Assembly: GCA_963715195.1 (NCBI GenBank) | Contig: CAVQRT010000031.1 | Coordinates: 224,001-288,000 of the forward strand | Source: Thermodesulfovibrionales bacterium | Lineage (GTDB): Bacteria; Nitrospirota; Thermodesulfovibrionia; Thermodesulfovibrionales; SM23-35 | Length of the DNA: 64,000 nt | Reading direction: 5' to 3' | Shown here: piece by piece, positions 26,854 to 48,573 of the stretch | Numbering within the stretch: the first letter of the stretch is position 1 | Layout: the number at the start of each line of letters is the position of its first letter | Translations under genes and position numbers: made by a program | The notes under the pieces: generated by a model | Databases searched by the model: none | What the model was told of the DNA's origin: nothing | The model's input: the letters and a program-made list of their open reading frames with translations, nothing else

Positions 26854-29304
26854 CTATACGTTTTCCACCATTTCCCAGACGCCGCATGGACAGATGCCCG
26901 CGCAGAATCCGCAGCCGATGCACTTGTCATCGTCAACGACATACTCATATGAGCCGTCTTTGTGCTCGATCCTGCTGATTGCCCCCCAGTAGCAGGTAGC
27001 CTCACACATGTGGCAATCCCGGCAGGTGGCACAGGACATGCATTTGTTTGCCTCCTGTTCGGGAGACGTGAAGTCTCCCCGGCAGACATCATAATATTCC
27101 GTTCTGATACGTTCGTAGGGAATAACCTGTTTGATTTCGGGCGAGCGCGGGGCATGCATAAGCTGGTAGTGAATTGTCTCCGCAGCGGTCCTGCCCTGTC
27201 CGATTGCATGGGTAACGAGTCCAAGCCGCGTGGCGTCGCCGATCGCAAAGACTTTTACGTCAGATGTCTGTCCAATTTCGTTGACCGCAATCCATCCTCT
27301 TTCGGTATGGATGTTCGGCGGGAGGAAATCGAGAATCGGGATATCACCAACGGACATGATAACGACGTCAGCTTCAAGAAATGTCCCGTCCTTAAAAAAC
27401 AGTTTCTTTTCATTGTGGTCATATCTGTCCGTGAATCTCGGCCAGAGTATCTGTGTTCCCTTCGCAAGAGCAGTATCCATTTCCTTTCCGGATGCAGCCG
27501 GTTTCTGGATGTCCACAGCAATGACAGACTCAGCCCCGCAATTGAATGCCTGGGATGCAACATCCATCCCCACGTTGCCGGCCCCGATGATAACAACCTT
27601 CTTTTCATGCAGGGTTGGGATATCACCAAAGTTAATCCCCTTCAGAAAGTCATATGCCGAGAGGATGTGCTCTGAACCGGGGAACGGGAAAATCCGGGGT
27701 TTATGAGCACCGCAGGACACGACGACGATCTCGTGGGACGCATATATTTCCTCGAATTTCTTCTGATCTGTTCTCGCGTTCAGATGGACCGAAACCCCTA
27801 TCTCCCTGAACCGTGACAGTTCTTTCTGGAGTACATCCTGCGGAAGCCGTTCCCTCGGTATACAGAGTTCAAGCTTTCCGCCAAGCTTGTCCGTTGCTTC
27901 ATACAGATCGACTGTGTGGCCTTTGAGGCCGAGCTGCCAGGCGGCGCTCAGCCCTGCCGGTCCCCCTCCGATGACTGCTATGGTATGTCCCGTGGAATCA
28001 GCCTTTTCCGGTGCCGGAAGGTCAAGGGCGAGTCTGCCAAGCTGATCGATGCCCAACGGTTTGTCGAGCTTTGCCCTCGTGCAGCTCTGCATGCAGAGGT
28101 TCGGGCATATCTGACCGCATACGGTTGCCGGGAGCGGACTGTACTGAAGCACGAGTTCCAGGGCTTCATGGAGTTTCCCCTGTCTGATGAGCGAGGCCCT
28201 CTTGTGTGAAGGAATTTGTGTCGGGCAATTGTATGCGCAGGGTGGCAGGTATTTTTCATTTGCCCACACAGGTCTGTTCCTTCTCTCTTTCCCGGTTGTT
28301 ATATACGGCAGTATGGTCAGGTCGTGATCTATGTAAGGCGCAAATATCCCGCCTGCACCGACCTCTTTTTCCCATGTATTCTTCCTGAAATCGGAAGTCG
28401 AAATGCTAAACCATCGCCGGGCACGCTTCTCCTGAGGGGTAAATGCGATGAACTTTTTCCAGTCATCCGAAGAACGGGTCAGTTCTCTGTAATAGGACAT
28501 TCTGTCAATGGCTTTAAGATAGGGCTTCATTTGTGTTTTGAGCCATTCCCAGTCCTGCGGAGTGAGGTCGAGAAGTTTTACATCCCGTTCACTGTATCCC
28601 TGAATCGGGCCTCTGAAATAGACAGTGCCGCCCACCATTCCGACGCAAGGCCGGTAACCGAGGATGTTCTGAGGGTTCCTTGAATCAACACCGCAGACAA
28701 CGGCGATACCGCCCGCCTTGAATTCGGCGAACGAATCCCCGACATTCCTGAAATACCAGGACTGCGGCGGGTCGAAACGGGGATTGTGTTTCGTCATCGT
28801 ATCGCAGCGTGCTCCGCCACTTCCCTGAACGTAGAGAATTCCCTGTGCTGCGGCATTGAAGGCTCCGTTCGTTACGTCTCCCAATACTGTTATGTTTGCC
28901 CCGCAATTGATCCACCCGATATCATCGGAAGCACTCCCGTTGACAACGATTTCGGTGCCGAACATCCCCATGCTCCCGAGCCTCTGACCAACAGGCCCGT
29001 CCACGGTAATTTTGACGGTCTCTCCCCTCGGCCAGATTCTCCCTCCGATGCCGTGCTGCCCATCGGCCAGGATGTGCAAAGCCCGGGCCCCATCCCTGAC
29101 CGCCTGCTGTATTTCCTCCTCCAGGATCCGGGACCGAACACGCTTCCCGCCGACGACGCCGTGAATGGTTATGATTTTCTGTTCTGTTTTCTGGAAATCT
29201 TCTTTTTCTTCTTGAGCAGCAGTGAGTGCAGGCCGAATGTTTTTTGTTTTTTTCTTCCCGTCTGTTCCCCGCTGCCTACTGCCCACTGGTTTTTTAGCAC
29301 GCAT
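26854..29304 (-). CDS. Glutamate synthase subunit: GXGXG domain fused to GltD-like FAD/NAD(P)H oxidoreductase and 4Fe-4S dicluster
   Basis: [20 protein letters not shown], terminal CxxCxxCxxxC motifs. Confidence 0.88.
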
Positions 29305-30955
29305 AGCTTATTTCCAATCTGTCTGCCATCGCTTTATCATCGATGCTCAATCCGTCCGACATCCCGATGGGCAGTTCGGTGCTTCTTCCCATGGGAGCGA
29401 AGATTTTTTTCAGTTCGACATTGGCTGACTTGAATACTTCGACAACACGCTCGGCAACCTTGTCGGAATCCAGTCTCCGGTAAAGTTTTGGGTCCTGGGT
29501 CGTTATGCCTCTCGGGCATTTCCCCGTATTGCAGAGGTTGCAGCGATTATATTCGTCACCGAAGCAGTTTGCGGTTGCCTGCATAACATATTTCCCGATT
29601 GATACCGCCGATGCGCCGAGCATGATGAGGGCAGCAGCATTTGCCGCCAAATTCCCTTTCTTTGCAACACCTCCGGCCGCAATCAATGGCAGTTCATTCT
29701 GTTTGCCCTGTTTGACGAGGTCGAGGTAGCATTCCCGCAGATTCGATACTATCGGATGCCCCATCTTGTCTATCGAGACATTGTAGGCAGCTCCGGTTCC
29801 GCCGTCTTCACCATCGATCGACAGAGCTGCTGCATAAGGATTCCTCGCGAGATTATTGAGAACAGCGCGTGCCGTTTTGGTTCCGGAAATCTTCGGGTAA
29901 ACAGGCACACGGAATCCCCAGGCCATTGACATCGACTGGATCATCTTCGCAACGGCCTCTTCAATAGAGTATTTCGTCTGATGGGTGGGGGGTGATGCGA
30001 GGTCGACAAACTGCGGGACCCCGCGAATGCTTGCGATAAGCCTCATGACCTTCTGGGCCATGAGGAGACCGCCGTCACCGGGTTTTGCGCCCTGACCATA
30101 CTTGATCTCGATGGCAGCGGGGTCCTCGACCATATCAGGTATAGCATGGATGATCTCATCCCATCCGAAATACCCTGAAGCGATCTGAATGGTCATGTAT
30201 TTCAGAAATCTTGATTTCAATAGCCTTGGCGGTACCCCGCCTTCACCGGTGCACATGACAACCGGCATGTTCTCAACTTCATTGAGATAGGCGACTCCCA
30301 TGGCAAGGCCCTCCCACATCGGAGGCGACAATGCCCCCATGGACATGCTTCCGATCATGATGGGGAATATTTCACGGACCGGGGGGATAAATGTATCAGT
30401 CGGATGTTCAACTCCGAGTGTACCGTTCGTTGTAATCAGGGGCAGTTCTTCGGGCGGCAGGATTCTTCCCAGAAGGGTCCTTACCCGGAATTCATGTCTC
30501 CCTGCATCGAGGGCAGGATCTGTGAGCATGGAGATTCTCGTGAATTTGAGTCTGTCGAGCGTCGATATCGCAGGGTCATTCCTTCTTCCACCTCGTTTAT
30601 AGCCTTCTCCGCCCCTGTTTTTGAAATGAAGAAATTTGTTCGTTGGGTTATACTCAGGTTCTATCGCATCATTCGGGCATACAAGGGTGCATGCGCCGCA
30701 GCCGGTACAGGCCCGCTCTATCTCCGTCACCTGTTCAACGACATGGGTGATTCTCCGGACGGTTGCCGGTTCTGGAACAGGGCCTTCCGACTGCACAAGG
30801 CGCTGAAGTTTGACTGCCGGTACGATAGCCTTTACCGGACAGACCGCCGTGCAACTGCCGCATCGCTTGCACCGGTCATCCCTCCAGCGGACGATATAGG
30901 GAAATTCCTTCAGCGAGAGCTGATGATTGTGATCTAATGTTGCAGCTGGTTCCAT
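29294..30955 (-). CDS. Glutamate synthase FMN subunit with N-terminal 2x[4Fe-4S] and C-terminal 3Fe-4S Cys
   Basis: MSMGALS, TGEGG, EIKYGQGAKPGDGG, CNLCNTGKCP. Confidence 0.9.
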   Translation of the reverse strand: MEPAATLDHNHQLSLKEFPYIVRWRDDRCKRCGSCTAVCPVKAIVPAVKLQRLVQSEGPVPEPATVRRITHVVEQVTEIERACTGCGACTLVCPNDAIEPEYNPTNKFLHFKNRGGEGYKRGGRRNDPAISTLDRLKFTRISMLTDPALDAGRHEFRVRTLLGRILPPEELPLITTNGTLGVEHPTDTFIPPVREIFPIMIGSMSMGALSPPMWEGLAMGVAYLNEVENMPVVMCTGEGGVPPRLLKSRFLKYMTIQIASGYFGWDEIIHAIPDMVEDPAAIEIKYGQGAKPGDGGLLMAQKVMRLIASIRGVPQFVDLASPPTHQTKYSIEEAVAKMIQSMSMAWGFRVPVYPKISGTKTARAVLNNLARNPYAAALSIDGEDGGTGAAYNVSIDKMGHPIVSNLRECYLDLVKQGKQNELPLIAAGGVAKKGNLAANAAALIMLGASAVSIGKYVMQATANCFGDEYNRCNLCNTGKCPRGITTQDPKLYRRLDSDKVAERVVEVFKSANVELKKIFAPMGRSTELPIGMSDGLSIDDKAMADRLEISYAC

Positions 30956-32043
30956 ACGCTGACCTCCTCCGCATCTGGCTTGACGATTACCATGTCGTAT
31001 TTCATAGGAAAGATATCACCTGATTTGTCCCTTTTGGGGATGGAGCTGTCGAGGCCGCATTCCTCGGACATCAGTGCATATTTCCCCTTAGTCCCGCCAA
31101 CGACTCCGGGTCTCAGTTTCTTTGCGTCGTGCGCCATGAAACAGTTGCCGTTGGGGGTAAATCCGATAACCATATTCGGGCCGTCGATGCAGAGCGGCCT
31201 TAAGGATTGTTTGATAAGCCGCAAGGCTTTTTTGTCCTGTCTGGGTTCGATTTCAGAATCTTTCAGCGGTGTAATGACATCTTTATAGTAGGTGAGAGGG
31301 AATCCCAACTGCCGTACGGTATAGTGCAGAATATGGGTGAAAACCTCACTGTCACTGTTATACCCCATATACCCCGGGAAGCCCCTGCTCATCAGGAACT
31401 CCCTGATGGGCACAAAGGCAGTATTCTCTCCGTTTGTCATAGAGCAAAATCCCTGGATGAAAAAAGGATGGCAGGCATAGAGATAGATCGCATAATTTGT
31501 GTTCTGCCTTCCCTGAGCAAAGATAATTTTTGCTTTGAGGCCGCCCTTGTCGAGACCAAAGAATTCAGCTACCTGAAGCGGGTCCCCGACTTCCTTCAGC
31601 GTCAGTACGTCGGGATAGAATGAGAAAACGAAGATTGATTCATCCTGTTCTCCGAGCTTTCGCAGCGTAAGGCGGATATTCATCAGGAGATCTTCTTTTT
31701 CCTTTGTCGGTTTGTATTTGTAGGAAAAGGGATAATCGTATGCCCGCGCGAAATAATGGTCGCGGGGCTGAATCCCCTTAACGGATTTTGTTTTCGGAGC
31801 CCAGATGTCTTTTAACTGAAATCCTGCCTTGTCCATGAAGTCGTCAAGAATCTTAGCCCCGGATTTTGAGCATATGCCTGAAAGAATCGGGTATCCTTTC
31901 AGGTGCTCAAAATGCCCCCCAAGGTCTTTGAGTGTGAGACCAAGACCTGAGCCGTCGTGGCCCTCCTTCATGGTCTCAAGGGCAAGGATATTCTCCATCG
32001 GGGAAAAGTATTCCTTTGAAGTTATTGCGGCCAATCTGCACAT
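30934..32043 (-). CDS. Class II glutamine amidotransferase subunit of split glutamate synthase
   Basis: N-terminal M-C, RQNTN, HPF, NGE, SDSE. Confidence 0.9.
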   Translation of the reverse strand: MCRLAAITSKEYFSPMENILALETMKEGHDGSGLGLTLKDLGGHFEHLKGYPILSGICSKSGAKILDDFMDKAGFQLKDIWAPKTKSVKGIQPRDHYFARAYDYPFSYKYKPTKEKEDLLMNIRLTLRKLGEQDESIFVFSFYPDVLTLKEVGDPLQVAEFFGLDKGGLKAKIIFAQGRQNTNYAIYLYACHPFFIQGFCSMTNGENTAFVPIREFLMSRGFPGYMGYNSDSEVFTHILHYTVRQLGFPLTYYKDVITPLKDSEIEPRQDKKALRLIKQSLRPLCIDGPNMVIGFTPNGNCFMAHDAKKLRPGVVGGTKGKYALMSEECGLDSSIPKRDKSGDIFPMKYDMVIVKPDAEEVSVWNQLQH

Positions 32044-32063: not shown

Positions 32064-32093
32064 AGTTAGACGGCAATCGATTGCCGTCTAACT
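32064..32093. promoter_or_regulatory. Perfect 30-bp palindrome with core GGCAA-N4-TTGCC; putative NrpR operator of the glt operon
   Basis: AGTTAGACGGCAATC|GATTGCCGTCTAACT between TTGACA (minus, 32120-32125) and the start codon. Confidence 0.7.
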
Positions 32094-35325: not shown

Positions 35326-35339
35326 GGTAACCGTTCGCC
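35326..35339. promoter_or_regulatory. Putative NrpR operator GGTAA-CCGT-TCGCC
   Basis: Begins 41 nt after the start of TTGACA (35285), just before ATG 35348. Confidence 0.6.
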
Positions 35340-35347
35340 GACAAACC

Positions 35348-36605: not shown

Positions 36606-36726
36606 AAACAACTAAGAGAACGAACCCTTTATGTATATTGAGTAATGGTTTTTTTTACCCTTTGACTTAAGCAATACTGAAATTTAACAGTCTTTTGTTA
36701 AATAATACTAAACTAAGGAGAAAGCA

Positions 36727-38328
36727 ATGAATTACGGAAAACCGAATGCAAGCGCTGCAACAGGGACCAAAAACAGAGTATGGGACCAAGCCCCTTATTC
36801 AGGCATTTGTTCAGTTTGCCTCGATGGGTGTCCGGGAATCTGTGAAATCGGCAAATCTTCGTTCAGGGGCAGGGAAGTTTTATATCCGCAGCCTTTTGGA
36901 AAGGTAACGGCAGGAGCGGTAAAGGAATATCCGGTGGATTATTCGCACTTGAATATTCAGGGGACATGCATTGGCGCAATAGGCATGGATGCGGATTCGG
37001 ACAAAGCACTCTTCACAAACGTTTCTACCGAAGTGACAATTGGCAATAAACATAAGGTTACACTGAGGGTCCCGATTTTCACTGGTGCCCTCGGCTCTAC
37101 GAATATTGCACGGGATAATTGGGAAGGTCTGGCTGTCGGTGCAGCTATTTCAGGAATTATGGTTGTTATTGGGGAGAATGTCATAGGCATGGATCACGAT
37201 TCCGAGTTAAAGAATGGCAGAGTGGTCAATTCCCCTGAACTTGCAAGAAGGATTAAGACTTTTAATGAATGGAAAGATACCCATGGAGCTATTATTTTGC
37301 AGCAAAATGTCGAGGATGCAAGGCTTGGCTCTCCTGAATACGCAGTGGATAAGCTCGGGGTTGAATGTCTGGAGTTGAAATGGGGACAGGGAGCAAAGAA
37401 CATCGGAGGCGAAGTAAAACTGAAAACCCTCGACAGGGCCCTTGAATTAAAGAGAAGGGGATATGTTGTCCTGCCGGATCCTGAAGACTCTGTTGTGCAG
37501 AAGGCTTTCAAAGAGGGGGCTTTCAAGGAATTCGAGCGGCATTCGAGGCTTGGAATGGTCGAATATGAAGGTTTCATGAAGAGCGTTGAGTATCTTAGGA
37601 AAATAGGGGCAAAATTCGTTTCTCTGAAGACAGGAGCTTACAGAGTTGCAGATCTTGCGCGGGCGATGAAGTTTGCGTCTGATGCGGAAATAGACCTTCT
37701 CACCATCGACGGCGCGGGTGGCGGAACCGGAATGAGCCCGTGGAGAATGATGAATGAATGGGGAATTCCGACTATCTACCTCGAGGCGCTTGCCTATAAA
37801 TTCGCTCAGGAACTGAGGGCGAGGGGTAAATATGTGCCGGACCTCGCTATTGCAGGTGGGTTCTCACTTGAAGACCATGTATTCAAGGCAATTGCTCTGG
37901 GTGCTCCGTTCGTCAAGGCGGTCTGCATGGGCCGTGCAACTATGATACCTGCCATGGTCGGGAAAAATATCGGAAGGTGGATGCAGGAAGATAAACTGCC
38001 TCCTGAAATAAAGAAATACGGCGATACAGCGGAAAAGATATTCGTGAGTGCCGAAACATTAAAGTCAAAATACGGGAAAGCTTACAAGAAGCTTCCTCCC
38101 GGTGCAATAGGAATGTATACATTCAGCGACAGATTGCAAATTGGACTCCAGCAGCTTATGGCGGGTGCAAGGAAATTTGCAATCCAGTACGTTGACAGGT
38201 CTGACCTCGTATCATTGACAAAGGAAGCATCAGAGGTAACCGGAATTCCTTATGTGATGGAATCTGATATGGAAGAGGCTGACAGAATCTTGTTTGGTCT
38301 CGAAGAGGCCGAGAAATCAAGAGTATAA
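36727..38328 (+). CDS. Stand-alone FMN-binding glutamate synthase family protein, paralog 1
   Basis: ELKWGQGAK.IGGE, DGAGGGTGMSP, N-terminal CxxCxxxCxxxC. Confidence 0.88.
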   Translation: MNYGKPNASAATGTKNRVWDQAPYSGICSVCLDGCPGICEIGKSSFRGREVLYPQPFGKVTAGAVKEYPVDYSHLNIQGTCIGAIGMDADSDKALFTNVSTEVTIGNKHKVTLRVPIFTGALGSTNIARDNWEGLAVGAAISGIMVVIGENVIGMDHDSELKNGRVVNSPELARRIKTFNEWKDTHGAIILQQNVEDARLGSPEYAVDKLGVECLELKWGQGAKNIGGEVKLKTLDRALELKRRGYVVLPDPEDSVVQKAFKEGAFKEFERHSRLGMVEYEGFMKSVEYLRKIGAKFVSLKTGAYRVADLARAMKFASDAEIDLLTIDGAGGGTGMSPWRMMNEWGIPTIYLEALAYKFAQELRARGKYVPDLAIAGGFSLEDHVFKAIALGAPFVKAVCMGRATMIPAMVGKNIGRWMQEDKLPPEIKKYGDTAEKIFVSAETLKSKYGKAYKKLPPGAIGMYTFSDRLQIGLQQLMAGARKFAIQYVDRSDLVSLTKEASEVTGIPYVMESDMEEADRILFGLEEAEKSRV

Positions 38329-38337
38329 GTTTTGCAT

Positions 38338-38372
38338 AAGGCGGTGATGCCGCATTGCGGCATCACCGCCTT
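38338..38372. other. 17-bp perfect inverted repeat between the glutamate-synthase-like gene and nrpR
   Basis: AAGGCGGTGATGCCGCA-T-TGCGGCATCACCGCCTT with no good U-tract. Confidence 0.6.
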
Positions 38373-38401
38373 CCCTGATATAACGGAGGTGCTGATTTCC
38401 T

Positions 38402-39376
38402 ATGACGAAGACAATGTTATCAATCTTAAAGATACTTGATACGCATCCTGACAAGATTCTTGGGTCAGGGGCTCTATCAAAGCGATTGAAGGTACACGGG
38501 GTCGATCTTACTGAAAGAACGGTACGGTATCATCTCAGGATTCTCGATGAGCGGGGTTTTACCAAGGTATTCGGCAAAGAAGGAAGGATGATTACCCCGA
38601 GAGGGAAAGAAGAACTCACGCAAGCCCTTGTCTCCGACAAAATTGGTTTTATTATCAGCAGGATTGAAACGTTGGCGTATTTAACAGATCTTGACCTCGA
38701 AACACACAATGGAAATGTTATCCTTAATATTTCCTATTTTCCTGAAGAAGAATTGAAGGATGCAATCAGGCTCATGAGCCCTGTTTTTTCCTCACCGTAC
38801 GTAATGTCGAAGATGGTTATTTTGAAGAGATCAGGGGAAAGGATAGGAGACGTGATGGTGCCGGATGGACAGGTTGGTTTTGGTACGGTTTGCAGCGTAA
38901 CCATAAACGGGATATTTCTGAAGGCAGGGATACCTGTGACATCAAGGTTTGGTGGAGTCCTCCAAATTAATTCCGACCCGGTTCGTTTTACCGCCCTGAT
39001 CGCCTATGAAGGCTCTTCACTCGACCCCCTTGAGGTATTCATCAAGAGCAAGATGACCGATATCATGGGTGCTGTCGGAAATCATTCGGGAAAGATACTC
39101 GCAAGTTTCAGGGAAATACCAGTGGTGAGTATCGAGAAAGCCACACAATTGAGAGCAACACTCACGGACAAGGGCATTGGTGGTGTTCTGCTCATCGGGA
39201 ACCCCAACCAGCCACTCCTTGAGATGCCTGTCGGACTTGACAGGGCAGGTATGATCATCGTCGGTGGTCTTAATCCGATAGCAGCCCTTGAGGAAGCAGG
39301 TATACCAACAATAACCAAGGCTATGTCCACGCTCTATAAATTTTCTGAACTTATTCCTTTTCAGGAACTCATCTAA
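38402..39376 (+). CDS. nrpR: NrpR-type nitrogen repressor (wHTH + single NRD/DUF128), copy 1
   Basis: ERTVRYHL..LDERG, TVCSVTINGIFLKAGIP, SSLDPLE, GGLNP. Confidence 0.88.
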   Translation: MTKTMLSILKILDTHPDKILGSGALSKRLKVHGVDLTERTVRYHLRILDERGFTKVFGKEGRMITPRGKEELTQALVSDKIGFIISRIETLAYLTDLDLETHNGNVILNISYFPEEELKDAIRLMSPVFSSPYVMSKMVILKRSGERIGDVMVPDGQVGFGTVCSVTINGIFLKAGIPVTSRFGGVLQINSDPVRFTALIAYEGSSLDPLEVFIKSKMTDIMGAVGNHSGKILASFREIPVVSIEKATQLRATLTDKGIGGVLLIGNPNQPLLEMPVGLDRAGMIIVGGLNPIAALEEAGIPTITKAMSTLYKFSELIPFQELI

Positions 39377-39472
39377 TCCATATTCATAATTTAACCCCAC
39401 GAAAATGCAGAGTCTACAGTATCTTATGCCCAGTCGATGAATGAAGAGGGCAAAAAGACATAAATTGATTTA

Positions 39473-39491
39473 GTCGGCAAACATTGCCGAC
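39473..39491. promoter_or_regulatory. Operator-like palindrome GTCGGCAA-ACA-TTGCCGAC (auxiliary site)
   Basis: Same half-sites as the other operators but a 3-nt spacer. Confidence 0.45.
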
Positions 39492-39611
39492 CAGTTACCT
39501 CTCTGCAGTTTACTGTAAAATCAAGCGGATCAAATCTAACAGGGTGATTACCGTTTAATTTATTTATATTTGTTAGGCAATAATTTTCATAATTCATCGA
39601 TATGACAGGAC

Positions 39612-39664
39612 TTGACATTTCTTTTTTTATTTGGTAGAAGTAAAGCAAAAGGTAACCGATTGCC
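39612..39664 (+). promoter_or_regulatory. sigma70 promoter plus putative NrpR operator GGTAA-CCGA-TTGCC
   Basis: TTGACA-N17-TAGAAG; operator at 39651-39664. Confidence 0.65.
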
Positions 39665-39972
39665 TACGAAATGAACACTCTTTGGTCAGGCATAATTGTC
39701 CCGTGCAGTTTTTGTGAAAAAATAACTGGCACACAAACGATCTCACGCCTTCTGATAATTCGATGAAAACTATATTGCTGCATGAAATCATTCGCTTTTC
39801 TCGTCAGATGATACATAAAGGCTTCAAGGTCTTTTCTCTATCCAAAGCAATAATCCATCTCCATGGAAAAGAAGGAGGTGTTGAGATGTAAGGATTTTTT
39901 TGTCCATATGGTTCACCAATACTAAAGCAGGTCTAAAAAACATAATGAATACTGAAAAAGGAGGAGGAAAAG

Positions 39973-41538
39973 ATGAGTCTAAGCAAGCCAAATGCAAGTG
40001 CTGCAACAGTAACAACCACCAGGGTGTCACCATCGCCGATGTCAGGATTGTGCGTCAACTGTGTCGATGGCTGCCCCGGATACTGCGAGGTTGGCAGGTC
40101 TGCACTTCGTGGGAGAGAAATTCTCTATCCGCAGCCTTTCGGGAAGGTCATTTCAGGGGCAGAGAAAGATTATCCGGTTGATTTCTCACATTTCAATATA
40201 CATGGAACGTGTGTTGGAGCTGTGGGAAGTGAGGCAGATCCTGATAAGGCAACATTCCCTTCTGTCAGCGTAGAGACAGAAATAACCGGTCAAGGCACCA
40301 AAATCCCGATGAAAGTGCCATTTTTCACCGGTGCCCTTGGCTCGACCGAAATCGCCCGTGTCAACTGGGAGGGCACAGCTATTGGTGCAGCCATTAGCGG
40401 GTCTATTCTCGTATGCGGTGAAAATGTCTGTGGAATGGATTCAAAGGCTGAGATCAAGAATGGAAAAATCGCGAATTCGCCCGAGCTCGCGCGGCGAGTA
40501 AAGACCTACAAGGACTGGTATGACGGATACGGTACAATGCTTGTTCAGTTAAATGTTGAGGACACCCGCCTTGGGGTTGCCGAGTATGCTGTAGAAAAAC
40601 TCGGCGTGGAGGGCATTGAGCTCAAATGGGGACAAGGAGCCAAATGTATTGGTGGTGAAGTGAAACTGCCGACATTGGATAGAGCGCTCCAATTGAAACA
40701 GAGAGGGTATATTGTTCTCCCTGATCCTGAAAATAAGTCAGTACAGGAAGCACATAAACTTGGAGGCGTTGCTGAATTCGAGAGACACTCACGTCTTGGA
40801 ATGGTTGAAGAAGACTCATTTATGAAAGAAGTCGAACGGGTGAGAAAGATTGGCGCAAAATATGTGACCCTTAAGACAGGGGCTTACAGGCCGGTGGATC
40901 TAGCCCGTGCAGTTAAGTATTCATCGATGGCGAAAATTGACCTCCTTACGGTGGATGGTGCCGGTGGAGGGACAGGAATGAGCCCGTGGAGAATGATGAA
41001 CGAATGGGGCATCCCGACCGTCTATCTTGAATGCCTTTTGTACAACTATCTGAAAAGGCTGAAGGAAAAGGGTGAGTTTGTCCCGTCCGTTGCCATCGCC
41101 GGTGGTATAGTTCTTGAAGACCAGATTTTCAAGGCACTGGCACTCGGCGCTCCTTTTGTGAAAGCGATCTGCATGGGGCGTTCAACCCTTACCGCGGGAA
41201 TGGTCGGCAAGTCCCAGGGGAATAACATCGAAGAGGCTTTTGGAAAAGGCAAGGAATACGAAGAGGCCCTGATGAGGACGTTTAACGGTGCGGCAATGCT
41301 GAAAGACAAATTTGGGAAGGATCTCAAGAAGATTCCCCCGGCAGCGATAGGGATATACACTTACTACGACCGGCTTGCTGTGGGATTGAGACAGCTTATG
41401 GCAGGGGCACGTAAATTCGCCCTGAAGTATATTGAGAGAAGTGATCTCATGTCGATGACCCGCGAAGCAGCAGATGTGTCAGGTATCCCGTATTTGATGG
41501 ATGTCGACATGAAAGAAGCAGAAAATATCTTAGGATAA
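39973..41538 (+). CDS. Stand-alone FMN-binding glutamate synthase family protein, paralog 2
   Basis: Same motifs as 36727..38328; strong SD. Confidence 0.88.
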   Translation: MSLSKPNASAATVTTTRVSPSPMSGLCVNCVDGCPGYCEVGRSALRGREILYPQPFGKVISGAEKDYPVDFSHFNIHGTCVGAVGSEADPDKATFPSVSVETEITGQGTKIPMKVPFFTGALGSTEIARVNWEGTAIGAAISGSILVCGENVCGMDSKAEIKNGKIANSPELARRVKTYKDWYDGYGTMLVQLNVEDTRLGVAEYAVEKLGVEGIELKWGQGAKCIGGEVKLPTLDRALQLKQRGYIVLPDPENKSVQEAHKLGGVAEFERHSRLGMVEEDSFMKEVERVRKIGAKYVTLKTGAYRPVDLARAVKYSSMAKIDLLTVDGAGGGTGMSPWRMMNEWGIPTVYLECLLYNYLKRLKEKGEFVPSVAIAGGIVLEDQIFKALALGAPFVKAICMGRSTLTAGMVGKSQGNNIEEAFGKGKEYEEALMRTFNGAAMLKDKFGKDLKKIPPAAIGIYTYYDRLAVGLRQLMAGARKFALKYIERSDLMSMTREAADVSGIPYLMDVDMKEAENILG

Positions 41539-41549
41539 GGAGGAAGATA

Positions 41550-41771
41550 ATGCTTAATTTAATTTGCTATAAGTTCTGTTCATCACCCTTCTGCATGGTT
41601 AGTTGTCCTGCAGGTGCAATAAGTATCTCAACAAAGGATAACAATGTTTATGCCGACACGAATAAATGCAACAGGTGTGGTATCTGTCGTGGCATGTGTT
41701 CTATTCTGAGTTTTGATAAAAATCTGAGAAGGAGAAGGCCGTGGGTGCGTGAGGATTTCGGCAAAAAATAG
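41550..41771 (+). CDS. Small ferredoxin-like Fe-S protein
   Basis: CxxC-x4-CxxxCP and CxxCxxCxxxC; AGGAGG SD. Confidence 0.8.
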   Translation: MLNLICYKFCSSPFCMVSCPAGAISISTKDNNVYADTNKCNRCGICRGMCSILSFDKNLRRRRPWVREDFGKK

Positions 41772-41845
41772 AAGGCATATAATCATTCTCCTCTCTTTCG
41801 TTGTACCCATCAGTCAAGGATGAGGAGTTAGAGGAAGTTACAGGT

Positions 41846-42325
41846 ATGGAAGAAGAACTTTTAGAACAAATCTTATCATCATACTGTGGTCAGAGAAATG
41901 AACTCGTTCCGATCCTTCAGGAGGTTCAGGAAAACCTTGGCTACCTTCCGGAGAAGGTGATGCTGGATATTGCGCGCTTTGTCGGCGCTCCCGAAAGTCA
42001 TGTATATTCTGTCGCATCTTTTTATGCGCAGTTCAGAACACTGCCACTCGGCAAGAGACGAGTTGCTGTCTGCAGAGGTACGGCATGTCATATCAGAGGA
42101 GCGCCTCAAGTCCTCCATGCAATTGAGGACTCAATCCATCTGAAGGAAGGGGAAACGTCTGAGGACCTTGAGTACACGCTCGAGACGGTTGCATGTATTG
42201 GATGCTGTGCTCTGGCCCCCTGCGTAAGAGTCAATAAGGACGTTAGCGGAGATATGACGCCGGAAAAAGCCATGAAACTTTTCATGAGGAATGGCAAAAA
42301 TGACGGAAGAAAAAGGATTAAATAA
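41846..42325 (+). CDS. NuoE/HydC-like 2Fe-2S subunit
   Basis: CRGTAC...CIGCC; ATG 41846 is the likely start. Confidence 0.9.
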   Translation: MEEELLEQILSSYCGQRNELVPILQEVQENLGYLPEKVMLDIARFVGAPESHVYSVASFYAQFRTLPLGKRRVAVCRGTACHIRGAPQVLHAIEDSIHLKEGETSEDLEYTLETVACIGCCALAPCVRVNKDVSGDMTPEKAMKLFMRNGKNDGRKRIK

Positions 42326-43937
42326 GCGGCATGTAATCCTGGTATGTCAGGGGACGGGCTGCGTTTCAGGAGGGTCAGAACATATCTTTTCAGCCCTGAA
42401 AGATGCTTTGGAAACATCGGGGAATGGAAAAGACATCCTTGTAAAACGCACAGGCTGCCATGGTTTCTGCCAGCAAGGCCCTCTTGCTGTTGTCGAGCCA
42501 CAAGGTATTTTTTACACAAAAGTGACAAGAGAGGATATCCCTGAAATCTTGCAGTCTATTTCATTAGGAGGCAAACCGTTGGAGCGCCTCTTATATCGTG
42601 ATACATTTACGGATAAACCAATCCTCCATTACCATGATATTCCTTTCTACTGGAAACAGCAGAGAACCATATTGAAATACTGCGGCAGCATTGACCCTGA
42701 AGACATCGATGATTACAGCGAGGTCGGGGGATACAGAGCTCTGCAGAAGGCAATCTCTGCAATGTCTCCTGAAGACATTATTGGAGAAGTAAAGGAATCG
42801 GGACTGAGGGGACTTGGTGGCGCGGGTTTCCCCACCGGCCGCAAATGGGAATCCTGCCGAAATGTGCCCGGAGATATCAAGTACGTAATCTGTAATGCTG
42901 ACGAAGGCGACCCGGGAGCGTTCCAGGACAGATCAGTTATGGAAGGCAACCCTCACTCGCTTATCGAAGGTATGATCATTGCAGCCTATGCAATAGGAGC
43001 TCAACGAGGTTTTGTTTATGTGAGGGCAGAGTATCCCCTTGCTGTCAGCCGCCTAAAAATTGCTATCGACCAGGCACAGAAAGCAGGTTTTCTGGGTGAC
43101 GACATTGTGGGCAGAGGTTTCAGTTTTCATATCGACATCTTTCAGGGAGCAGGGGCCTTCGTATGCGGTGAATCGACGGCTCTGGTGCGCTCAATCGAAG
43201 GAAAGAGGGGTATGCCCAAGCCAATGCCCCGTCCGAGGACTACCGAGGAAGGATTATGGAATAAACCGACCCTTCTTAATAATGTCAAAACATTTGCAAA
43301 TATACCGTTGATCATCATGAACGGTTCAGAATGGTTTTCGCAGAGAGGGACAGAGAAAAGCAAGGGCACAGCCGTATTTTCTCTCACGGGAAAGGTGATG
43401 AACTGCGGCCTTATAGAAGTGCCCATGGGAGAAACGTTGCGGAAAATCATATTCGATATCGGGGGAGGAGTTTTAGGCGGCAAGTCCCTGAAAGCAATTC
43501 AGACCGGAGGGCCATCGGGCGGGTGCCTGCCTGCACACATGATAGATATGCCTGTTGATTTCGACTCGCTCACAAAAGCAGGTTCGATCATGGGTTCCGG
43601 AGGGCTTGTCGTGATGGATGAGGATACCTGCATGGTCGATGTTGCACGATACTTTCTTGATTTTAACCAGAGGGAATCCTGTGGCCAGTGCATCCCCTGC
43701 AGGATCGGTACCCGGCAGATGTTCGAGATCCTTGAAGAAATCACAAGAGGGAATGGACGGCCCGGGGATATCGACCTGCTCCTTGAATTAAGCAGCTCAA
43801 TAAAACAGAGTTCGATATGCGGACTCGGCAAGACAGCCCCAAATCCTGTTGTCACAACGATTCGGTATTTTCGGGATGAGTACGAGGCACACATTAAGGA
43901 GAAACGATGTCCTGCTGGTGTATGCAGGATGAATTGA
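42291..43937 (+). CDS. NuoF/HydB-like FMN/NAD(H) subunit
   Basis: N-terminal thioredoxin-like 2Fe-2S, GLGGAGFP, NADEGDPG, GGPSGG, CGQCIPC, CPAGVC; no C-terminal 2x[4Fe-4S]. Confidence 0.92.
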   Translation: MAKMTEEKGLNKRHVILVCQGTGCVSGGSEHIFSALKDALETSGNGKDILVKRTGCHGFCQQGPLAVVEPQGIFYTKVTREDIPEILQSISLGGKPLERLLYRDTFTDKPILHYHDIPFYWKQQRTILKYCGSIDPEDIDDYSEVGGYRALQKAISAMSPEDIIGEVKESGLRGLGGAGFPTGRKWESCRNVPGDIKYVICNADEGDPGAFQDRSVMEGNPHSLIEGMIIAAYAIGAQRGFVYVRAEYPLAVSRLKIAIDQAQKAGFLGDDIVGRGFSFHIDIFQGAGAFVCGESTALVRSIEGKRGMPKPMPRPRTTEEGLWNKPTLLNNVKTFANIPLIIMNGSEWFSQRGTEKSKGTAVFSLTGKVMNCGLIEVPMGETLRKIIFDIGGGVLGGKSLKAIQTGGPSGGCLPAHMIDMPVDFDSLTKAGSIMGSGGLVVMDEDTCMVDVARYFLDFNQRESCGQCIPCRIGTRQMFEILEEITRGNGRPGDIDLLLELSSSIKQSSICGLGKTAPNPVVTTIRYFRDEYEAHIKEKRCPAGVCRMN

Positions 43938-43989
43938 ATGAGGCTAAGAAAGATGCTGTTGGCAGGAACAATAGAGAAAGGAGGTCGCA

Positions 43990-46677
43990 ATGGGTACGGT
44001 TACACTGAAGATTGATGATCAGGAAATCCAAACCTGGCAAGGTGCCACTATCCTTGAAACGGCTCTGGAAAATAAAATCTATATACCACACCTCTGTTAT
44101 CATCCGGACTTGAAACCTGCCGGAAGCTGCCGTATCTGCCTTGTGGAACTTGATAACGGCCGACTGGTGAATTCATGCAGGACCCCGGTAAAGGAAGGCA
44201 TGGTCATAAGAACAAAGGGGTCTGAAGTCGATGCAGTGAGGCTGCCGGTTATTGAAATGATTATTGCCAATCATCATATGGACTGCAAGCATTGCCTAAA
44301 AAAAGGGCGGTGCCAATTGCAGAAGATCATGGCATATATGAAGGTAGACAAAAAGAAAATTCAGGAGCGGATGAGACTGCCGAAAGCTGATATGCCACTT
44401 GATGAATCGAATCCTTTTTTTATCAGAGATCATAACAAATGTGTCATGTGCGGAATTTGTATACAGACCTGCAAAGAGATTGCAAAAGTTAATGCAATTG
44501 ATTTTGCCGGCAGAGGGATCCAGAGCAAAGTTGCTCCGTTTGCAGATAAGCCGATAACAGAATCCAGCTGCGTCTCATGCGGAGAGTGCGTAATCCGCTG
44601 CCCTGTTGGTGCGCTTGTTTTAAGGAATCCCAGGAAAGCTGTCACGTGGGTGAAATCTATCTGTCCATACTGCGGCGTCGGATGCGGCGTTCTTCTGGGC
44701 ATCAAGGATAATGAAATTGTTGAGGTGAGAGCTGATGCGTCGAGTGCGGTAAATTTCGGATGTCTTTGTGTAAAAGGTCGCTTCGGCATGGACTTTGTAA
44801 ATTCACCGGACAGACTAAGCTACCCAATGGTAAGACAGGAGCGAGGAAAAGGAACAGACAAAGCAGCAGGTAAGGGGAGTAACAGCGGGTTTCTCGAGAT
44901 TTCCTGGGACGAGGCACTCGATCTTGTCGCAAAAAATTTGAAAAAATATAAGGGTGATGAATTTGCTCTCATAGCGTCAACTAAGTGCACTAATGAAGAC
45001 AATTATGTGGCACAAAAGTTTGCAAGGGTCGTCATGGGGAGCAACAACATCGACACCTCAGCCAGACTCTACTATGGTCCGAACATCACTGCGTTGCGGA
45101 GTACGGGGAAATGTGTCGGGTTCAGTCCGCCAGACGACAGTGATGTCTTTCCGGTTCCGGCGAGACAAAATCCGGATCTGATCGAAAAGGCTGCCTGCAT
45201 ACTTGTTGCCGGGGCAAATATTACCCAGTCACATCCGATATTAGGCCTGAAAATAAAGAAAGCGATTGATAACGGCGCGAAGCTTCTCGTCATAAGCCCG
45301 AATGAGACTGAACTCTGCCGAAGTGCTGAAAAATGCCTTAACCCCTATCCCGGTTCAGAACTGGCTCTTATTATGGGCATGTGCAATGTGATTGTCGAAG
45401 AGGAATTGTTTGACAGTGCATTCACAGGTATGTATTGCAATAATTTTGAAGAATTCAAAGAAGCACTCGGCGATTTTTCCCTTGGGAGGGTCGAAAGAAT
45501 TACCGGGATTCCCCGTGATATGGTCGAAGAGTCTGCCCGGACTTACGCGCTCAGCAAACCTGCTGCAATCTTCTGGGGTGCAGGAATCACCCAATATAGT
45601 CACGGGACAGACAGTGTTTATGCTCTCATAAATCTTGCAATTCTTACTGCAAATATCAAACATTCCTTTGCACTGAATCCCCTCTCAGAACAGAGCAATA
45701 CCTTAGGGGCCTGCGATATGGGTTGCCTGCCTGACTATTATCCCTGCTATCAACCCGTTGGTTCGCCTGATATACAGGAACGATTTGAAGCTCTTTGGGA
45801 GTGTGCACTGAACCCGAAGCCCGGCCTTACCTTTACCGAAATAATAGATGCCACACTTGCAGGAAAAATCAAAGCACTCTATATTATTGGATCGAACCCG
45901 GCTGTGACAATCGCTCCATCGAAAAAGGTAAAAGCTGCGTTGAAGAAAGCTAAATTTGTTGTTGTCCAGGACTTGTTCCTGAATGAGACAGCTCAATATG
46001 CCCACGTAGTCCTTCCGGCGGCAAGCTTTGCCGAAAAAACCGGTTCCTTTACGAATACAGGGGCTGAAACACAACCCATAGAAAAAGCACTTGAACCCTT
46101 TGGGAATTCAAGGCCGGACTGGGAAATATTGTGCCGGCTTGCAGATAGAATGGACAGCAGAGGCTTTGCGTTTGCAAGCCCCGATGACATTCTGTCGGAG
46201 ATGGTGGCGCTTATCCAGAACCTGCCTGAAACAATAGGAAAGTTTAGTTTGTTCCCGCTGCAATACAAAGCTCCGGCAGAGGCCGCAGACATGGATTATC
46301 CTCTTGTCCTGACGAGAGAGAGAGATTGTTACGCAGATGGCGTCATGTCTGAAAAAGCGCATGGCCTGAGAGAGCTTGGGTTGACAAACTATCTTCAGGT
46401 AAATCCAAAGGATGCCGCAGATTTTGGGATCGCTGACGGAGAAGCAGTTCGAATCGTTTCCCGGCACGGGTCTGCAGAGAGCAAGGCATTATTGACAGAA
46501 TCAACTCCTGCAGGTCTCGCAGTCCTAAAAGAGGATCAAGAACACTTCAATTCGCTTTTGAATCCAGTTCTCGATGTAATATCAAGAACTCCTGAGATGA
46601 AAATGTGTTCAGTCAGACTTGAAAAAGTTAAGGGGCACAAAAAGAGACAAAAGAATCTTGCAGTGAAATATGCATAG
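43990..46677 (+). CDS. FdhA/NuoG-like Fe-S molybdopterin-oxidoreductase homologue lacking FDH catalytic residues
   Basis: Five Fe-S motifs present; ARLYYGP replaces ARL(C/U)H and SEQSN replaces RGQNN. Confidence 0.85.
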   Translation: MGTVTLKIDDQEIQTWQGATILETALENKIYIPHLCYHPDLKPAGSCRICLVELDNGRLVNSCRTPVKEGMVIRTKGSEVDAVRLPVIEMIIANHHMDCKHCLKKGRCQLQKIMAYMKVDKKKIQERMRLPKADMPLDESNPFFIRDHNKCVMCGICIQTCKEIAKVNAIDFAGRGIQSKVAPFADKPITESSCVSCGECVIRCPVGALVLRNPRKAVTWVKSICPYCGVGCGVLLGIKDNEIVEVRADASSAVNFGCLCVKGRFGMDFVNSPDRLSYPMVRQERGKGTDKAAGKGSNSGFLEISWDEALDLVAKNLKKYKGDEFALIASTKCTNEDNYVAQKFARVVMGSNNIDTSARLYYGPNITALRSTGKCVGFSPPDDSDVFPVPARQNPDLIEKAACILVAGANITQSHPILGLKIKKAIDNGAKLLVISPNETELCRSAEKCLNPYPGSELALIMGMCNVIVEEELFDSAFTGMYCNNFEEFKEALGDFSLGRVERITGIPRDMVEESARTYALSKPAAIFWGAGITQYSHGTDSVYALINLAILTANIKHSFALNPLSEQSNTLGACDMGCLPDYYPCYQPVGSPDIQERFEALWECALNPKPGLTFTEIIDATLAGKIKALYIIGSNPAVTIAPSKKVKAALKKAKFVVVQDLFLNETAQYAHVVLPAASFAEKTGSFTNTGAETQPIEKALEPFGNSRPDWEILCRLADRMDSRGFAFASPDDILSEMVALIQNLPETIGKFSLFPLQYKAPAEAADMDYPLVLTRERDCYADGVMSEKAHGLRELGLTNYLQVNPKDAADFGIADGEAVRIVSRHGSAESKALLTESTPAGLAVLKEDQEHFNSLLNPVLDVISRTPEMKMCSVRLEKVKGHKKRQKNLAVKYA

Positions 46678-46700
46678 GAAAAGTCCCTTGAACAGGGTCC

Positions 46701-47690
46701 ATGTGTAGCTTTATGAATAAAACCATGATTGCAATTCTGAAAATTCTGGAGCAGCATGAGGATACCATCCTTGGCTCAAGAGGGATTTCAAGACAATTGA
46801 AACAACATGGGATTGAACTTACGGAGAGAACTGTGCGTTATCACCTGAGAATTCTCGATGAGCGGGGGTTTACCAAAGTATTTGGCAAGGAAGGAAGGAT
46901 GATAACACAGAAAGGAAAAGTCGAGCTTTCGCATGCGTTAGTGTCTGACAGAATCGGTTTTGTTATCAGCAGGATCGAAAGTCTTTCGTATCTGACAAGC
47001 CTTGATCTCGAAAAAAACGAAGGCGATATCATTCTCAATGTATCGTATTTTCCCGAAAAAAATCTGAAGGAAGCATTGCGGATAATGAGGCCGGTCTTTC
47101 TGTCGCCGTATGTTATGTCTGACAGGGTTATCATGAAAAGGGGAGGAGAGAAGATCGGAGATGTCCCGGTCCCGGATGAACAGGTTGGTTTTGGCACCGT
47201 CTGCAGTGTAACCATCAACGGTATATTCCTCAAGTCAGGTATCCCTGTTATATCGAAGTTCGGTGGTGTCTTGCAGATAGAGGAAGCTGAACTGTCGAGA
47301 TTTACTGCACTGATCAGTTACGAAGGTTCATCATTGGACCCGCTCGAAATATTTATCAAGAGCAGGATGACGGATGTCTTGGGTGCAGTTAGAAATCGCT
47401 CCGGGAAGATTCTCGCCAGTTTCAGAGAAATACCGGTGGTAAGCATCGAAAAAGCGGAAGAACTCTGGAACGAATTGAGAAAAAATGGCATACGGGGTAT
47501 TTTGCTCATAGGCAATCCCAACCAGCCACTTCTCGAGATGCCTGTTGGACTTGACAGGGCAGGGATGGTGATCGTTGGCGGACTGAATCCAATTGCTGCA
47601 CTTGAAGAAGCAGGGATTGCGACGGTAACAAAAGCAATGTCCACCCTCCACAGGTTCTCTGACCTTGTGAAGTTTACGGAACTTCTCTAA
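46701..47690 (+). CDS. nrpR: NrpR-type nitrogen repressor, copy 2
   Basis: Clear paralog of 38402..39376; start may be the ATG at 46713. Confidence 0.88.
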   Translation: MCSFMNKTMIAILKILEQHEDTILGSRGISRQLKQHGIELTERTVRYHLRILDERGFTKVFGKEGRMITQKGKVELSHALVSDRIGFVISRIESLSYLTSLDLEKNEGDIILNVSYFPEKNLKEALRIMRPVFLSPYVMSDRVIMKRGGEKIGDVPVPDEQVGFGTVCSVTINGIFLKSGIPVISKFGGVLQIEEAELSRFTALISYEGSSLDPLEIFIKSRMTDVLGAVRNRSGKILASFREIPVVSIEKAEELWNELRKNGIRGILLIGNPNQPLLEMPVGLDRAGMVIVGGLNPIAALEEAGIATVTKAMSTLHRFSDLVKFTELL

Positions 47691-48127
47691 GGCTCTTTGG
47701 ACTTTTCCAGGAAGTCTAAAATATAATCACAGTACTCGTGATAATCTTTTAAACAATCTGTGATTGAAGAATAAATGCTGTTATAATCAACGACGTCATA
47801 TTCATGAACCAGAATATTCCTTGTTCCAACACTTCGGGCTATTCGCCGGGCAAATTCTTCCGGGCAAATACCGCAATCGGCAAGCCTCAGGAAAGTCTCA
47901 GCATAATCCAGCGGAGGATTTGTATCTTTTGTTGATAGCTCTGAAATCAAATGATGATTTATATCAATAGCACGGTTGATAATTCTTTCCAGATACCGCT
48001 CAAGGGCTGCTTGTTTGATGAAGTCACGTGTTATTTCTTGCAAAGAATATTTGGCTAAGTCAGCGAGATGAACGAGTTCATTCTGAATAAGGGTTATTTT
48101 CCTTAAAATAAAGTTTTCCCTTATCAT
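47687..48127 (-). CDS. hepT: HepT-like HEPN RNase toxin (DUF86)
   Basis: RNILVHEY R-x4-H-x-Y motif. Confidence 0.88.
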   Translation of the reverse strand: MIRENFILRKITLIQNELVHLADLAKYSLQEITRDFIKQAALERYLERIINRAIDINHHLISELSTKDTNPPLDYAETFLRLADCGICPEEFARRIARSVGTRNILVHEYDVVDYNSIYSSITDCLKDYHEYCDYILDFLEKSKEP

Positions 48128-48573
48128 CTTGTCGCGGCTATCATTTCTTTTAATATCTTCTGCCGTTTTTTGATAAGAAATTTCTCAAGCGCAAAAAGAG
48201 GCTGAGAGTCGATATATTCTTTGAAGGCAAAAGCTTTATGTGCAGCATATTCATCCTCGTCACCATAGAGTAAAATCCCTGATGAAATAACTTCGTATCT
48301 ATGAAATGTATTAACCTTATTGAGATTTGTTAAATCTATTTTATTATCTGGGATACCGAACAGATCTGATAAAAAATGTAAGAGCTCAATATAATTGTTG
48401 AAATCAGCTATATTTCCTTTCTTTGTCGTTAATACTGCCACATCATAATCACTTTCTTCACGGACAGTTCCCATAGCCTGAGAGCCGAAAAGAACAAGAA
48501 ATTTGATCCCATGTTCGATTGCATATTGTTCAATATTTTCTTTATTGATTTCCATGAGTTTAATGTAGCACAT
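48124..48573 (-). CDS. mntA: MntA-like minimal nucleotidyltransferase antitoxin
   Basis: LFGS...SDYD motif; 4-nt overlap with hepT. Confidence 0.88.
   Translation of the reverse strand: MCYIKLMEINKENIEQYAIEHGIKFLVLFGSQAMGTVREESDYDVAVLTTKKGNIADFNNYIELLHFLSDLFGIPDNKIDLTNLNKVNTFHRYEVISSGILLYGDEDEYAAHKAFAFKEYIDSQPLFALEKFLIKKRQKILKEMIAATR

Follow-up and report, generated by a model that had tools for sequence, protein, structure and literature searches.

The FMN domain of glutamate synthase is known from two settings. In the alpha subunit of Azospirillum brasilense GltS (1EA0, 6S6S; PF01645) it shares one chain with an amidotransferase, a central and a GXGXG domain and with 3Fe-4S cysteines; in the split archaeal-type glutamate synthase (GltB1/B2/B3) it forms a separate polypeptide. 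The Bfu family (BfuABC/HydABC), which includes the NiFe-HydABCSL of Acetomicrobium mobile (7T2R), Wor-Bfu (9MQX) and Fdh-Bfu (PMC9304861), is defined in the accessible sections of PMC9304861 and PMC7311640 by five BfuB clusters, among them those of a ferredoxin-type B3/B4 domain (IPR017896), together with two residues close to the NAD(H) site, A202 and M204. Here we describe a six-gene cassette with relatives of both systems from a Thermodesulfovibrionales bacterium of the phylum Nitrospirota (assembly GCA_963715195.1; 97.8% complete, 6.6% contamination). It lies in a stretch of 64,000 nucleotides, hereafter the window (contig CAVQRT010000031.1, positions 224,001 to 288,000 of the forward strand), and all coordinates are counted from the first letter of that stretch. 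Our proposal, held at a little below even confidence, is that the cassette encodes an amidotransferase-free FMN/Fe-S enzyme which aminates 2-oxoglutarate with ammonia and is fed via ferredoxin by a non-bifurcating NAD(P)H diaphorase. The cassette comprises the following features:

39612..39640, plus strand: promoter with the -35 box TTGACA at 39612, a 17-nt spacer and a weak -10 box with an upstream TG
39651..39664, plus strand: operator GGTAACCGATTGCC (GGTA-N6-TGCC) just past the promoter, tentatively assigned to NrpR
39973..41538, plus strand: gene of the FMN flavoprotein, 521 aa, PF01645 with E 5e-14 over residues 279-397; proposed catalytic subunit
41550..41771, plus strand: gene of a 73-aa ferredoxin with eight cysteines
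41846..42325, plus strand: gene of a NuoE/BfuC-like [2Fe-2S] subunit; the ATG at 41846 suits the homolog lengths, and a TTG start at 41801 gives 174 aa
42291..43937, plus strand: gene of a truncated BfuB/NuoF
43990..46677, plus strand: gene of an FdhA-like protein, 895 aa; putative FdhA-derived Fe-S wire
46701..47690, plus strand: gene of NrpR, 329 aa, winged helix plus NRD1/2 (PF01995, PF08461)

The initial annotation of the window had described a co-oriented run of six genes behind an operator-bearing promoter, and the open reading frames, the domains and the promoter sequence bear this out. All six reading frames lie on the plus strand, separated by 11-74 nt or overlapping. A single contig of 3,794 nt from an independent DNA run spans 40603-44396 with ten differences and zero gaps; the short NuoF and the reading frames are therefore real and an assembly error is excluded. 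Contigs from the RNA libraries of two sediment runs match short parts of the FMN, nuoF, fdhA and nrpR genes, although such contigs cannot show transcription.

The flavoprotein had been read as an FMN protein without an amidotransferase or GXGXG partner and without 3Fe-4S cysteines, equipped with an N-terminal Cys4 motif. This description was confirmed across 189 relatives, a set that contains some duplicate loci. The protein has no amidotransferase, GXGXG or 3Fe-4S part, and the cassette operon encodes neither an amidotransferase nor a GXGXG protein. The Cys4 motif (C27, C30, C34, C38), which probably binds a [4Fe-4S] cluster, is conserved in 180-182 of the 189 relatives with nearly all exceptions being truncated rows, and the GltS-type 3Fe-4S motif (C-x5-C-x4-C) was absent from the C-terminal part of every one of them. 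In GltS, K937, R957 and T1030 bind 2-oxoglutarate. Their counterparts in the flavoprotein are K224, R244 and T334, and K218 and Q221 correspond to K931 and Q934; these equivalences were counted in the 1EA0 alignment, bridged via the GltB2 of the window, with K224 and R244 aligned directly and spaced by 20 residues as K937 and R957 are in GltS. For E150, Q192 and K301, the assignment to E886, Q909 and K999 was made from motifs and from their strand positions in the model. All 189 relatives share the equivalents of E886, Q909, K931, Q934, K937, K999, T1030 and G1071/G1072 without exception; the R957 position holds arginine in 182, lysine in six and leucine in one. The conserved 2-oxoglutarate pocket agrees with the earlier assignment as a stand-alone domain of the GltS-FMN type. 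The position of E978 is not conserved.

An AlphaFold model of the flavoprotein gave an FMN barrel with a pLDDT of 88. GltS was neither among the Foldseek rows shown nor in their re-alignment; it was found by a wide fold search (6s6s_A, Z 22.3, rmsd 3.4) with 349 residues, the longest alignment listed. Sequence and profile searches of the PDB returned designed TIM barrels only. The fold alone is undecided between GltS and other FMN barrels, and the sequence motifs described above decide for the GltS type. Alpha-hydroxy acid oxidases typically carry a catalytic histidine in an HGGR loop; the loop of the flavoprotein reads DGAGGGTG and has no histidine. Compared with GltS, the flavoprotein is 14% identical in the structural alignment, keeps the flavin and 2-oxoglutarate residues, lacks the amidotransferase, central and GXGXG domains as well as the 3Fe-4S cysteines, and has gained the N-terminal Cys4 and its own ferredoxin. 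GltB2 of the split enzyme keeps the 3Fe-4S site and sits with amidotransferase and GXGXG genes, whereas the flavoprotein has neither and aligns to GltB2 at the profile level only (probability 92%). The family is large, with 8000 of 8000 scored candidates and 149 representatives at E 1e-30, archaeal members included; within the phylum it was detected in 24 of 151 genomes, and it is annotated merely as 'FMN-binding glutamate synthase family protein'. In an 800-aa protein (P0239), a distant member is fused to an FrhB/FdhB (F420-type) domain.

In 75 of 76 matches, the gene of the 73-aa ferredoxin comes immediately after the FMN gene, which argues that the ferredoxin belongs to the flavoprotein and not to NuoF. 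It was also found without a NuoEFG module and alongside full-length BfuB, and its tail differs in the module-bearing loci. The cultured Desulfacinum infernum (L060) has the flavoprotein gene together with the ferredoxin gene. A complex prediction for the flavoprotein, the N-terminal 213 aa of FdhA and the ferredoxin gave a score of 0.06 and a mark of 0.32 with the ferredoxin as partner, values that we use neither for nor against binding.

The remaining redox proteins had been taken for a bifurcating module of the HydABC/Bfu type, and this part of the initial annotation did not stand; the NuoF and FdhA losses described here, together with a paralogous flavoprotein gene and a second nrpR upstream, had been overlooked. 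NuoF ends three residues past the B2 motif, and the C-terminal domain with the two [4Fe-4S] clusters B3/B4 is gone. All 15 readable cassette loci and all 120 closest homologs lack the same domain. GAFQD replaces GAFMD in 16 of 16 cassette loci, so that Met204 is Gln while Ala202 is kept; across the 120 homologs this position is Gln or His throughout. Other NuoFs near FMN genes have both the Met and B3/B4 (12/12). For known non-bifurcating enzymes, Gln is not among the residues listed at this position in the accessible sections of PMC9304861 and PMC7311640. NuoF retains B5, the FMN/NAD(P)H site, the ligands of B1 and B2, A202, F282 (the Phe in GAGAF) and GGPSG, and the C1 ligands are intact as well; the B2 motif is present in 119 and B5 in 113 of the 120 homologs. 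These features are shared with the Bfu family, and the best PDB match of NuoF is the HydB of A. mobile (7t2r_B, 763 bits), but B3/B4 and M204 are lost and the BfuA counterpart has no working catalytic domain. In this FdhA-like protein the Mo-ligand Cys, its His and the catalytic Arg are lost (DTSARLYYGP in place of DHCARLCHAP, LSEQSN in place of LRGQNN), while the N-terminal Fe-S ligands are intact. The Cys-His pair is absent from all six readable long forms, the present one included, and in Dehalococcoidia-type loci the protein has shrunk to about 210 N-terminal aa with invariant Fe-S ligands.

The origin of the module can be read from its relatives. Among the best 30 NuoF matches in 201 Dehalococcoidales genomes, all four truncated proteins follow the ferredoxin; three of them show the FMN gene and in the fourth the contig ends. 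The next four matches are full-length GAFQD proteins with B3/B4, three of which precede an intact FdhA. Because these sister proteins are full-length and mostly stand before intact FdhA, the module is most simply explained as what is left of a formate dehydrogenase operon, namely an NAD(P)H diaphorase and an Fe-S wire. The nuoE-nuoF-fdhA operons of Dehalococcoidia NAD(P)-linked formate dehydrogenases (L229-L231) share the gene order, the NuoF motifs GAFQD and GLRGLGG and an FdhA that is 45% identical over 917 columns; they keep B3/B4, DHCARLCH and RGQNNVQG, whereas the cassette has lost B3/B4 and both active-site motifs. On sequence grounds, the module thus appears to be non-bifurcating and resembles a decayed formate dehydrogenase operon, not HydABC and not a Bfu core. 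Two candidate NuoF markers of the cassette were rejected: many BfuB proteins of Dehalococcoidales contain NNVKT, which had first seemed specific to the clade, and the full-length sister proteins have GAFQD as well. Since both also occur outside the cassette, only the loss of B3/B4 marks it. The motif CGES, found in 120 of the 120 closest homologs, is associated with a preference for NADPH; no such preference is claimed here, since L005, L114 and L117 carry CGEE. A common arrangement in Dehalococcoidales (L207-L227) is fdhA-nuoE-nuoF in which NuoF carries a fused GltD-like domain and measures about 1020 aa.

The gene neighbourhood was surveyed in 160 loci from GTDB and metagenomes with 152 full-length flavoprotein genes. 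This sample favours close kin because it consists of the best-scoring 80 of about 590 per scan. The conserved co-occurrence expected of the cassette was found in part: it recurs in other genomes, 19 of the 152 genes carrying Fd-NuoEFG, but it is not family-wide. Three genes adjoin NuoEFG with full BfuB, 22 Fd-AOR (often with Hdr, Mvh and BfuBC) and two Fd-LUD; the ferredoxin alone follows in 19, the ferredoxin stands at a contig end in ten, and the contig ends directly in six. Hits on plasmids added no informative context. In other clades (L065/L155/L186, L052, L184), full BfuABC genes adjoin the family gene. The gene order of the cassette is kept in Nitrospirota, Dehalococcoidia, Ammonifex and a bin labelled Thermoproteota. 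In a midpoint-rooted FastTree phylogeny (without a clade test) the Fd-NuoEFG loci form one clade of the latter three, with the Nitrospirota copies nested in it (support 1.00) and the resident Nitrospirota paralog outside. This placement suggests transfer of the cassette. From its neighbourhoods, the flavoprotein looks like a catalytic unit with exchangeable electron donors. A large undescribed redox operon of the Desulfobacterota type (L017, L021-L026, L033, L035, L049, L050, L069, L077, L145, L152 and others) runs from the FMN protein and ferredoxin through an aldehyde:ferredoxin oxidoreductase (AOR), a 124-aa ferredoxin, HdrA, MvhD and HdrC to NuoE/F/G. One Nitrospirota family (nine of 27 genomes; L094-L101, L105-L110) has tandem flavoprotein copies of the approximately 57% and the 62% type between an HTH-cupin gene and nrpR.

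Nitrogen control by NrpR had been proposed for the cassette, and an operator of the NrpR type, to which NrpR presumably binds, proved to be common to the cassette, the split glutamate synthase and the operon of the paralog. The features concerned are the following:

26854..32043, minus strand: split glutamate synthase operon with a putative amidotransferase, its own FMN/3Fe-4S subunit and a GXGXG-GltD fusion; apparently co-regulated, outside the cassette
32072..32085, minus strand: operator copy, a perfect palindrome, ahead of the split glutamate synthase operon
35326..35339, plus strand: operator copy after the TTGACA-17-TATAAT promoter of the operon for a KaiC-HTH-cupin protein, the paralog and NrpR
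36727..38328, plus strand: resident flavoprotein paralog, 63% identical, with no adjoining electron module
38402..39376, plus strand: second nrpR, 75% identical
39473..39491, no strand assigned: second palindrome GTCGGCAA-ACA-TTGCCGAC, an operator-like site one base shorter

The paralog and the second nrpR sit immediately upstream of the cassette operon. In eight of eight aligned promoters TTGA.A is invariant and the spacing between promoter and operator nearly fixed, with the operator consensus GG(C/T)A-N6-TGCC; the cassette promoter, with its poor -10 box, was not listed by a consensus scanner. When the 2.8-Mb genome was scored with a matrix derived from 15 sites of other genomes, the cassette (25.8), the split glutamate synthase (23.1) and the paralog operon (18.5) came out on top, followed by a fourth site at 17.2. 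This ranking is partly circular because the pattern of the training sites was derived from the window, and the independent part of the evidence is the positional conservation in other genomes. Each of the three top operons carries a gene of the GltS-FMN type, and a regulon of this composition favours the consumption of 2-oxoglutarate. None of the 16 best sites in the genome precedes glnA or amtB. According to the accessible parts of the sources, NrpR of methanogens represses in a 2-oxoglutarate-dependent manner (PMC9765008) and the archaeal box is GGAA-N6-TTCC (bioRxiv 2024.03.05.583561). With the methanogen regulon the locus shares the wHTH-NRD repressor and a GG-A-N6-T-CC operator by the promoter; it differs in being bacterial, in its operator consensus and in that the top sites precede presumed glutamate-forming genes. 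With 111 occurrences, compared with 108 for the control, the exact archaeal box showed no enrichment in the genome. The KaiC-HTH-cupin protein is an alternative putative binder, although most loci with an HTH-cupin gene only showed no operator site. The proposed independence from GS/GOGAT (glutamine synthetase/glutamate synthase) holds at most for catalysis, because the operator, and with it the regulation, is shared with the split glutamate synthase.

Around these genes some further features were noted. The KaiC-HTH-cupin gene (35348-36605) is split in the window, and at 35556 two other runs are one base shorter; in relatives it encodes a single protein of about 420-450 aa and adjoins a flavoprotein-family gene in 38 of the 160 loci. 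A GAF-ANTAR regulator gene stands upstream of the family gene in 23 of the 160 loci, in lineages without nrpR (such as L018, L021, L029, L030, L032, L034, L058, L063, L064, L070 and L076). A 17-bp perfect inverted repeat at 38337-38373, between the paralog and the first nrpR, resembles a terminator or a processing signal. A HepT-like/nucleotidyltransferase pair on the minus strand (47687-48573) abuts nrpR and looks like a strain-specific insertion, since two other runs diverge in sequence past 47690. No Rfam match was obtained across 31900-48200.

The glutamate chemistry without an amidotransferase that had been suggested for the cassette is plausible from these sequences, and we infer the substrate, ammonia as nitrogen source, the direction, the electron path and the physical contact of the proteins. 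NAD(P)H would reduce the flavin of NuoF, and electrons would pass via B1 and the N-terminal clusters of FdhA, or via C1/B2, to the 73-aa ferredoxin, which would serve as the dedicated electron entry of the flavoprotein and deliver them through the Cys4 cluster to its FMN. The flavoprotein would hold 2-oxoglutarate as the GltS synthase site does and, with free NH3, form 2-iminoglutarate and then glutamate; it would in effect be a flavin/Fe-S glutamate dehydrogenase. NuoE, NuoF and FdhA would have been taken from a formate dehydrogenase operon, with the Mo site and the ferredoxin-binding B3/B4 lost on the way. A build-up of 2-oxoglutarate would cause NrpR to free the cassette, the split glutamate synthase and the paralog operon together. 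The net reaction would be that of the NAD(P)-dependent GdhA, to which the fold is unrelated; in contrast to the direct hydride transfer of GdhA, the flavoprotein would use a flavin/Fe-S chain and could plug into different donors. A wider reading, which we hold with somewhat less assurance and clearly short of an even chance, treats the family as a third, so far unrecognised way in which ammonia reaches glutamate, in addition to GdhA and GS/GOGAT. Anaerobic bacteria and archaea would then have a flavin/Fe-S glutamate dehydrogenase that needs neither ATP nor an amidotransferase and accepts interchangeable donors. In the cassette the donor would be the diaphorase of a decayed formate dehydrogenase; in other loci it would be a Bfu core, an AOR-Hdr complex or an F420-type subunit. 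At its boldest, this reading would have the small ferredoxin replace B3/B4 of BfuB and hard-wire the low-potential branch to amination.

The neighbourhood of the family is rich in nitrogen metabolism. Such a gene lay near the family gene in 93 of the 160 loci and in 60 of the 90 loci of at least 9 kb; the neighbours were nrpR (42), hisF (37), glnA (18), nadE (18), gdhA (14), carA/carB (12/10) and purF (6). Amidotransferase-type genes were found nearby in 12-14 of the 160 loci; the hisH count includes PdxT-like genes. The order nrpR-hisF-FMN gene is common in Dehalococcoidia (L008-L015, L118-L135), often by purL/purQ, nadE and a PdxT-like glutaminase. With a completeness filter of 90, the Dehalococcoidia sample comprised 111 genomes; the tabulated matches put the family signature in 21 of them, and five of these have no canonical GltB match; four of the five (G160, G204, G212, G229) also have no GXGXG match. 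G160, which carries the cassette, and G229 possess GlnA and gave no match to GltB, GXGXG or a glutamate/leucine dehydrogenase. The genome of the window gave no match to one GdhA query. In the window, the putative amidotransferase of the split glutamate synthase (30934-32043) was assigned by its N-terminal Cys and by 24-25% matches to GATase-type genes, and had no Pfam or PDB match.

Several observations weigh against an ammonia-dependent amination of 2-oxoglutarate by the cassette. It is physiologically awkward for nitrogen limitation to induce an ammonia route of low affinity, gdhA itself is among the close neighbours in 14 loci, and canonical GltB is matched in 16 of the 21 Dehalococcoidia genomes with the family gene. 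Three of the 90 genomes without this gene likewise lack GltB and dehydrogenase matches and the bins are fragmented, so the absences lend the proposal little weight. No module adjoins 71 of the 152 flavoprotein genes; in L119, L126, L194 and L195 it is reduced to fragments, which also speaks against an obligate complex. The highest scores of the wide fold search went to type 2 IPP isomerase and the alpha-hydroxy acid oxidases (Z about 25 over some 290-305 residues; about 25-26 over some 300 for the oxidases), which are by Z nearer than GltS, the family has an invariant E-R-H-S-R motif of its own, and no assay or structure was found for any member.

Some of these points suit other explanations. 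The conserved pocket is silent on direction, and the enzyme may oxidise glutamate instead, passing electrons to NAD(P)+ or ferredoxin and freeing ammonia for GlnA and ammonia-using synthases, as the neighbouring glnA, hisF, nadE, carA/carB and purF would suggest. We consider this unlikely, given that the operator is common to the cassette and the split glutamate synthase and that making 2-oxoglutarate upon release of a 2-oxoglutarate-sensing repressor would be counterproductive (NrpR behaviour as in the accessible part of PMC9765008). Membership in the same regulon, the frequent canonical GltB and the nearby amidotransferase-type genes would also fit a split glutamate synthase in which the flavoprotein acts as an alternative FMN subunit and takes its ammonia from a glutaminase in trans (30934-32043, a HisH/PdxT-like protein or CarA). 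This is slightly less likely still: the split enzyme already has its own FMN/3Fe-4S subunit, four Dehalococcoidia genomes with the family gene gave no GXGXG match, the E978 position is not conserved and, as a weak further point, no longer, fused form of the flavoprotein was found. The module could still bifurcate, with the 73-aa ferredoxin substituting for B3/B4 and the low-potential branch feeding the flavoprotein directly. The retained B2, B5, A202, F282 and GGPSG, the finding that each of the 15 readable loci combines B3/B4 loss with the ferredoxin, and the distinct ferredoxin tail point in this direction, but Met204 is replaced in all 120 homologs, the ferredoxin is likewise found where the module is missing and where BfuB is full-length, and the catalytic third arm is missing because FdhA is dead or absent; residual bifurcation is accordingly improbable. 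About as improbable is a mere passenger, that is, a decaying formate dehydrogenase operon landed in a nitrogen operon and unwired to the flavoprotein. It would explain the decay of the FdhA Mo site, the repeated deletion relics and the many relatives without a module, yet the gene order, the intact truncated NuoF and the invariant Fe-S ligands are kept across Nitrospirota, Dehalococcoidia, Ammonifex and the bin labelled Thermoproteota, and truncated NuoF was not seen away from the cassette among 30 loci examined. The lowest probability, by a small margin, goes to another substrate, be it a different 2-oxo acid, an amine (e.g. an alkylamine, as in N-methylglutamate synthase) or a 2-hydroxy acid, to which the fold scores within the wider FMN barrel family, the family-specific invariant residues and the Fd-AOR and Fd-LUD neighbours lend some support; the GltS-type motifs WGQGAK and DGAGGGTG in place of HGGR and the nitrogen-assimilation neighbourhood stand against it.

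A full-text literature search, with most subscription papers outside its coverage, found no description of the flavoprotein family or the cassette. The word 'glutamate' is absent from the accessible main text of the Bfu survey (PMC9304861), which a truncated BfuB would escape because it falls outside the domain filter given there, and the accessible parts of PMC5736913, PMC6046458 and bioRxiv 2021.04.12.439528 do not describe the family or the cassette. The parts of the cassette are thus of known kinds, and their combination and probable reaction appear undescribed. If the proposed amination of 2-oxoglutarate is correct, the GltS synthase domain would be seen to work without an ammonia tunnel, and the cassette would provide a natural experiment on the Bfu mechanism, with a BfuB that has lost B3/B4 and Met204 and retained B2 and B5. 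It would explain the glutamate supply in genomes without GOGAT or GdhA. Many anaerobes (Thermodesulfovibrionia, Dehalococcoidia, Desulfobacterota, Firmicutes and some archaea) would own a glutamate-forming enzyme that metabolic models ignore, and anaerobes of sediments may make glutamate straight from ammonia.

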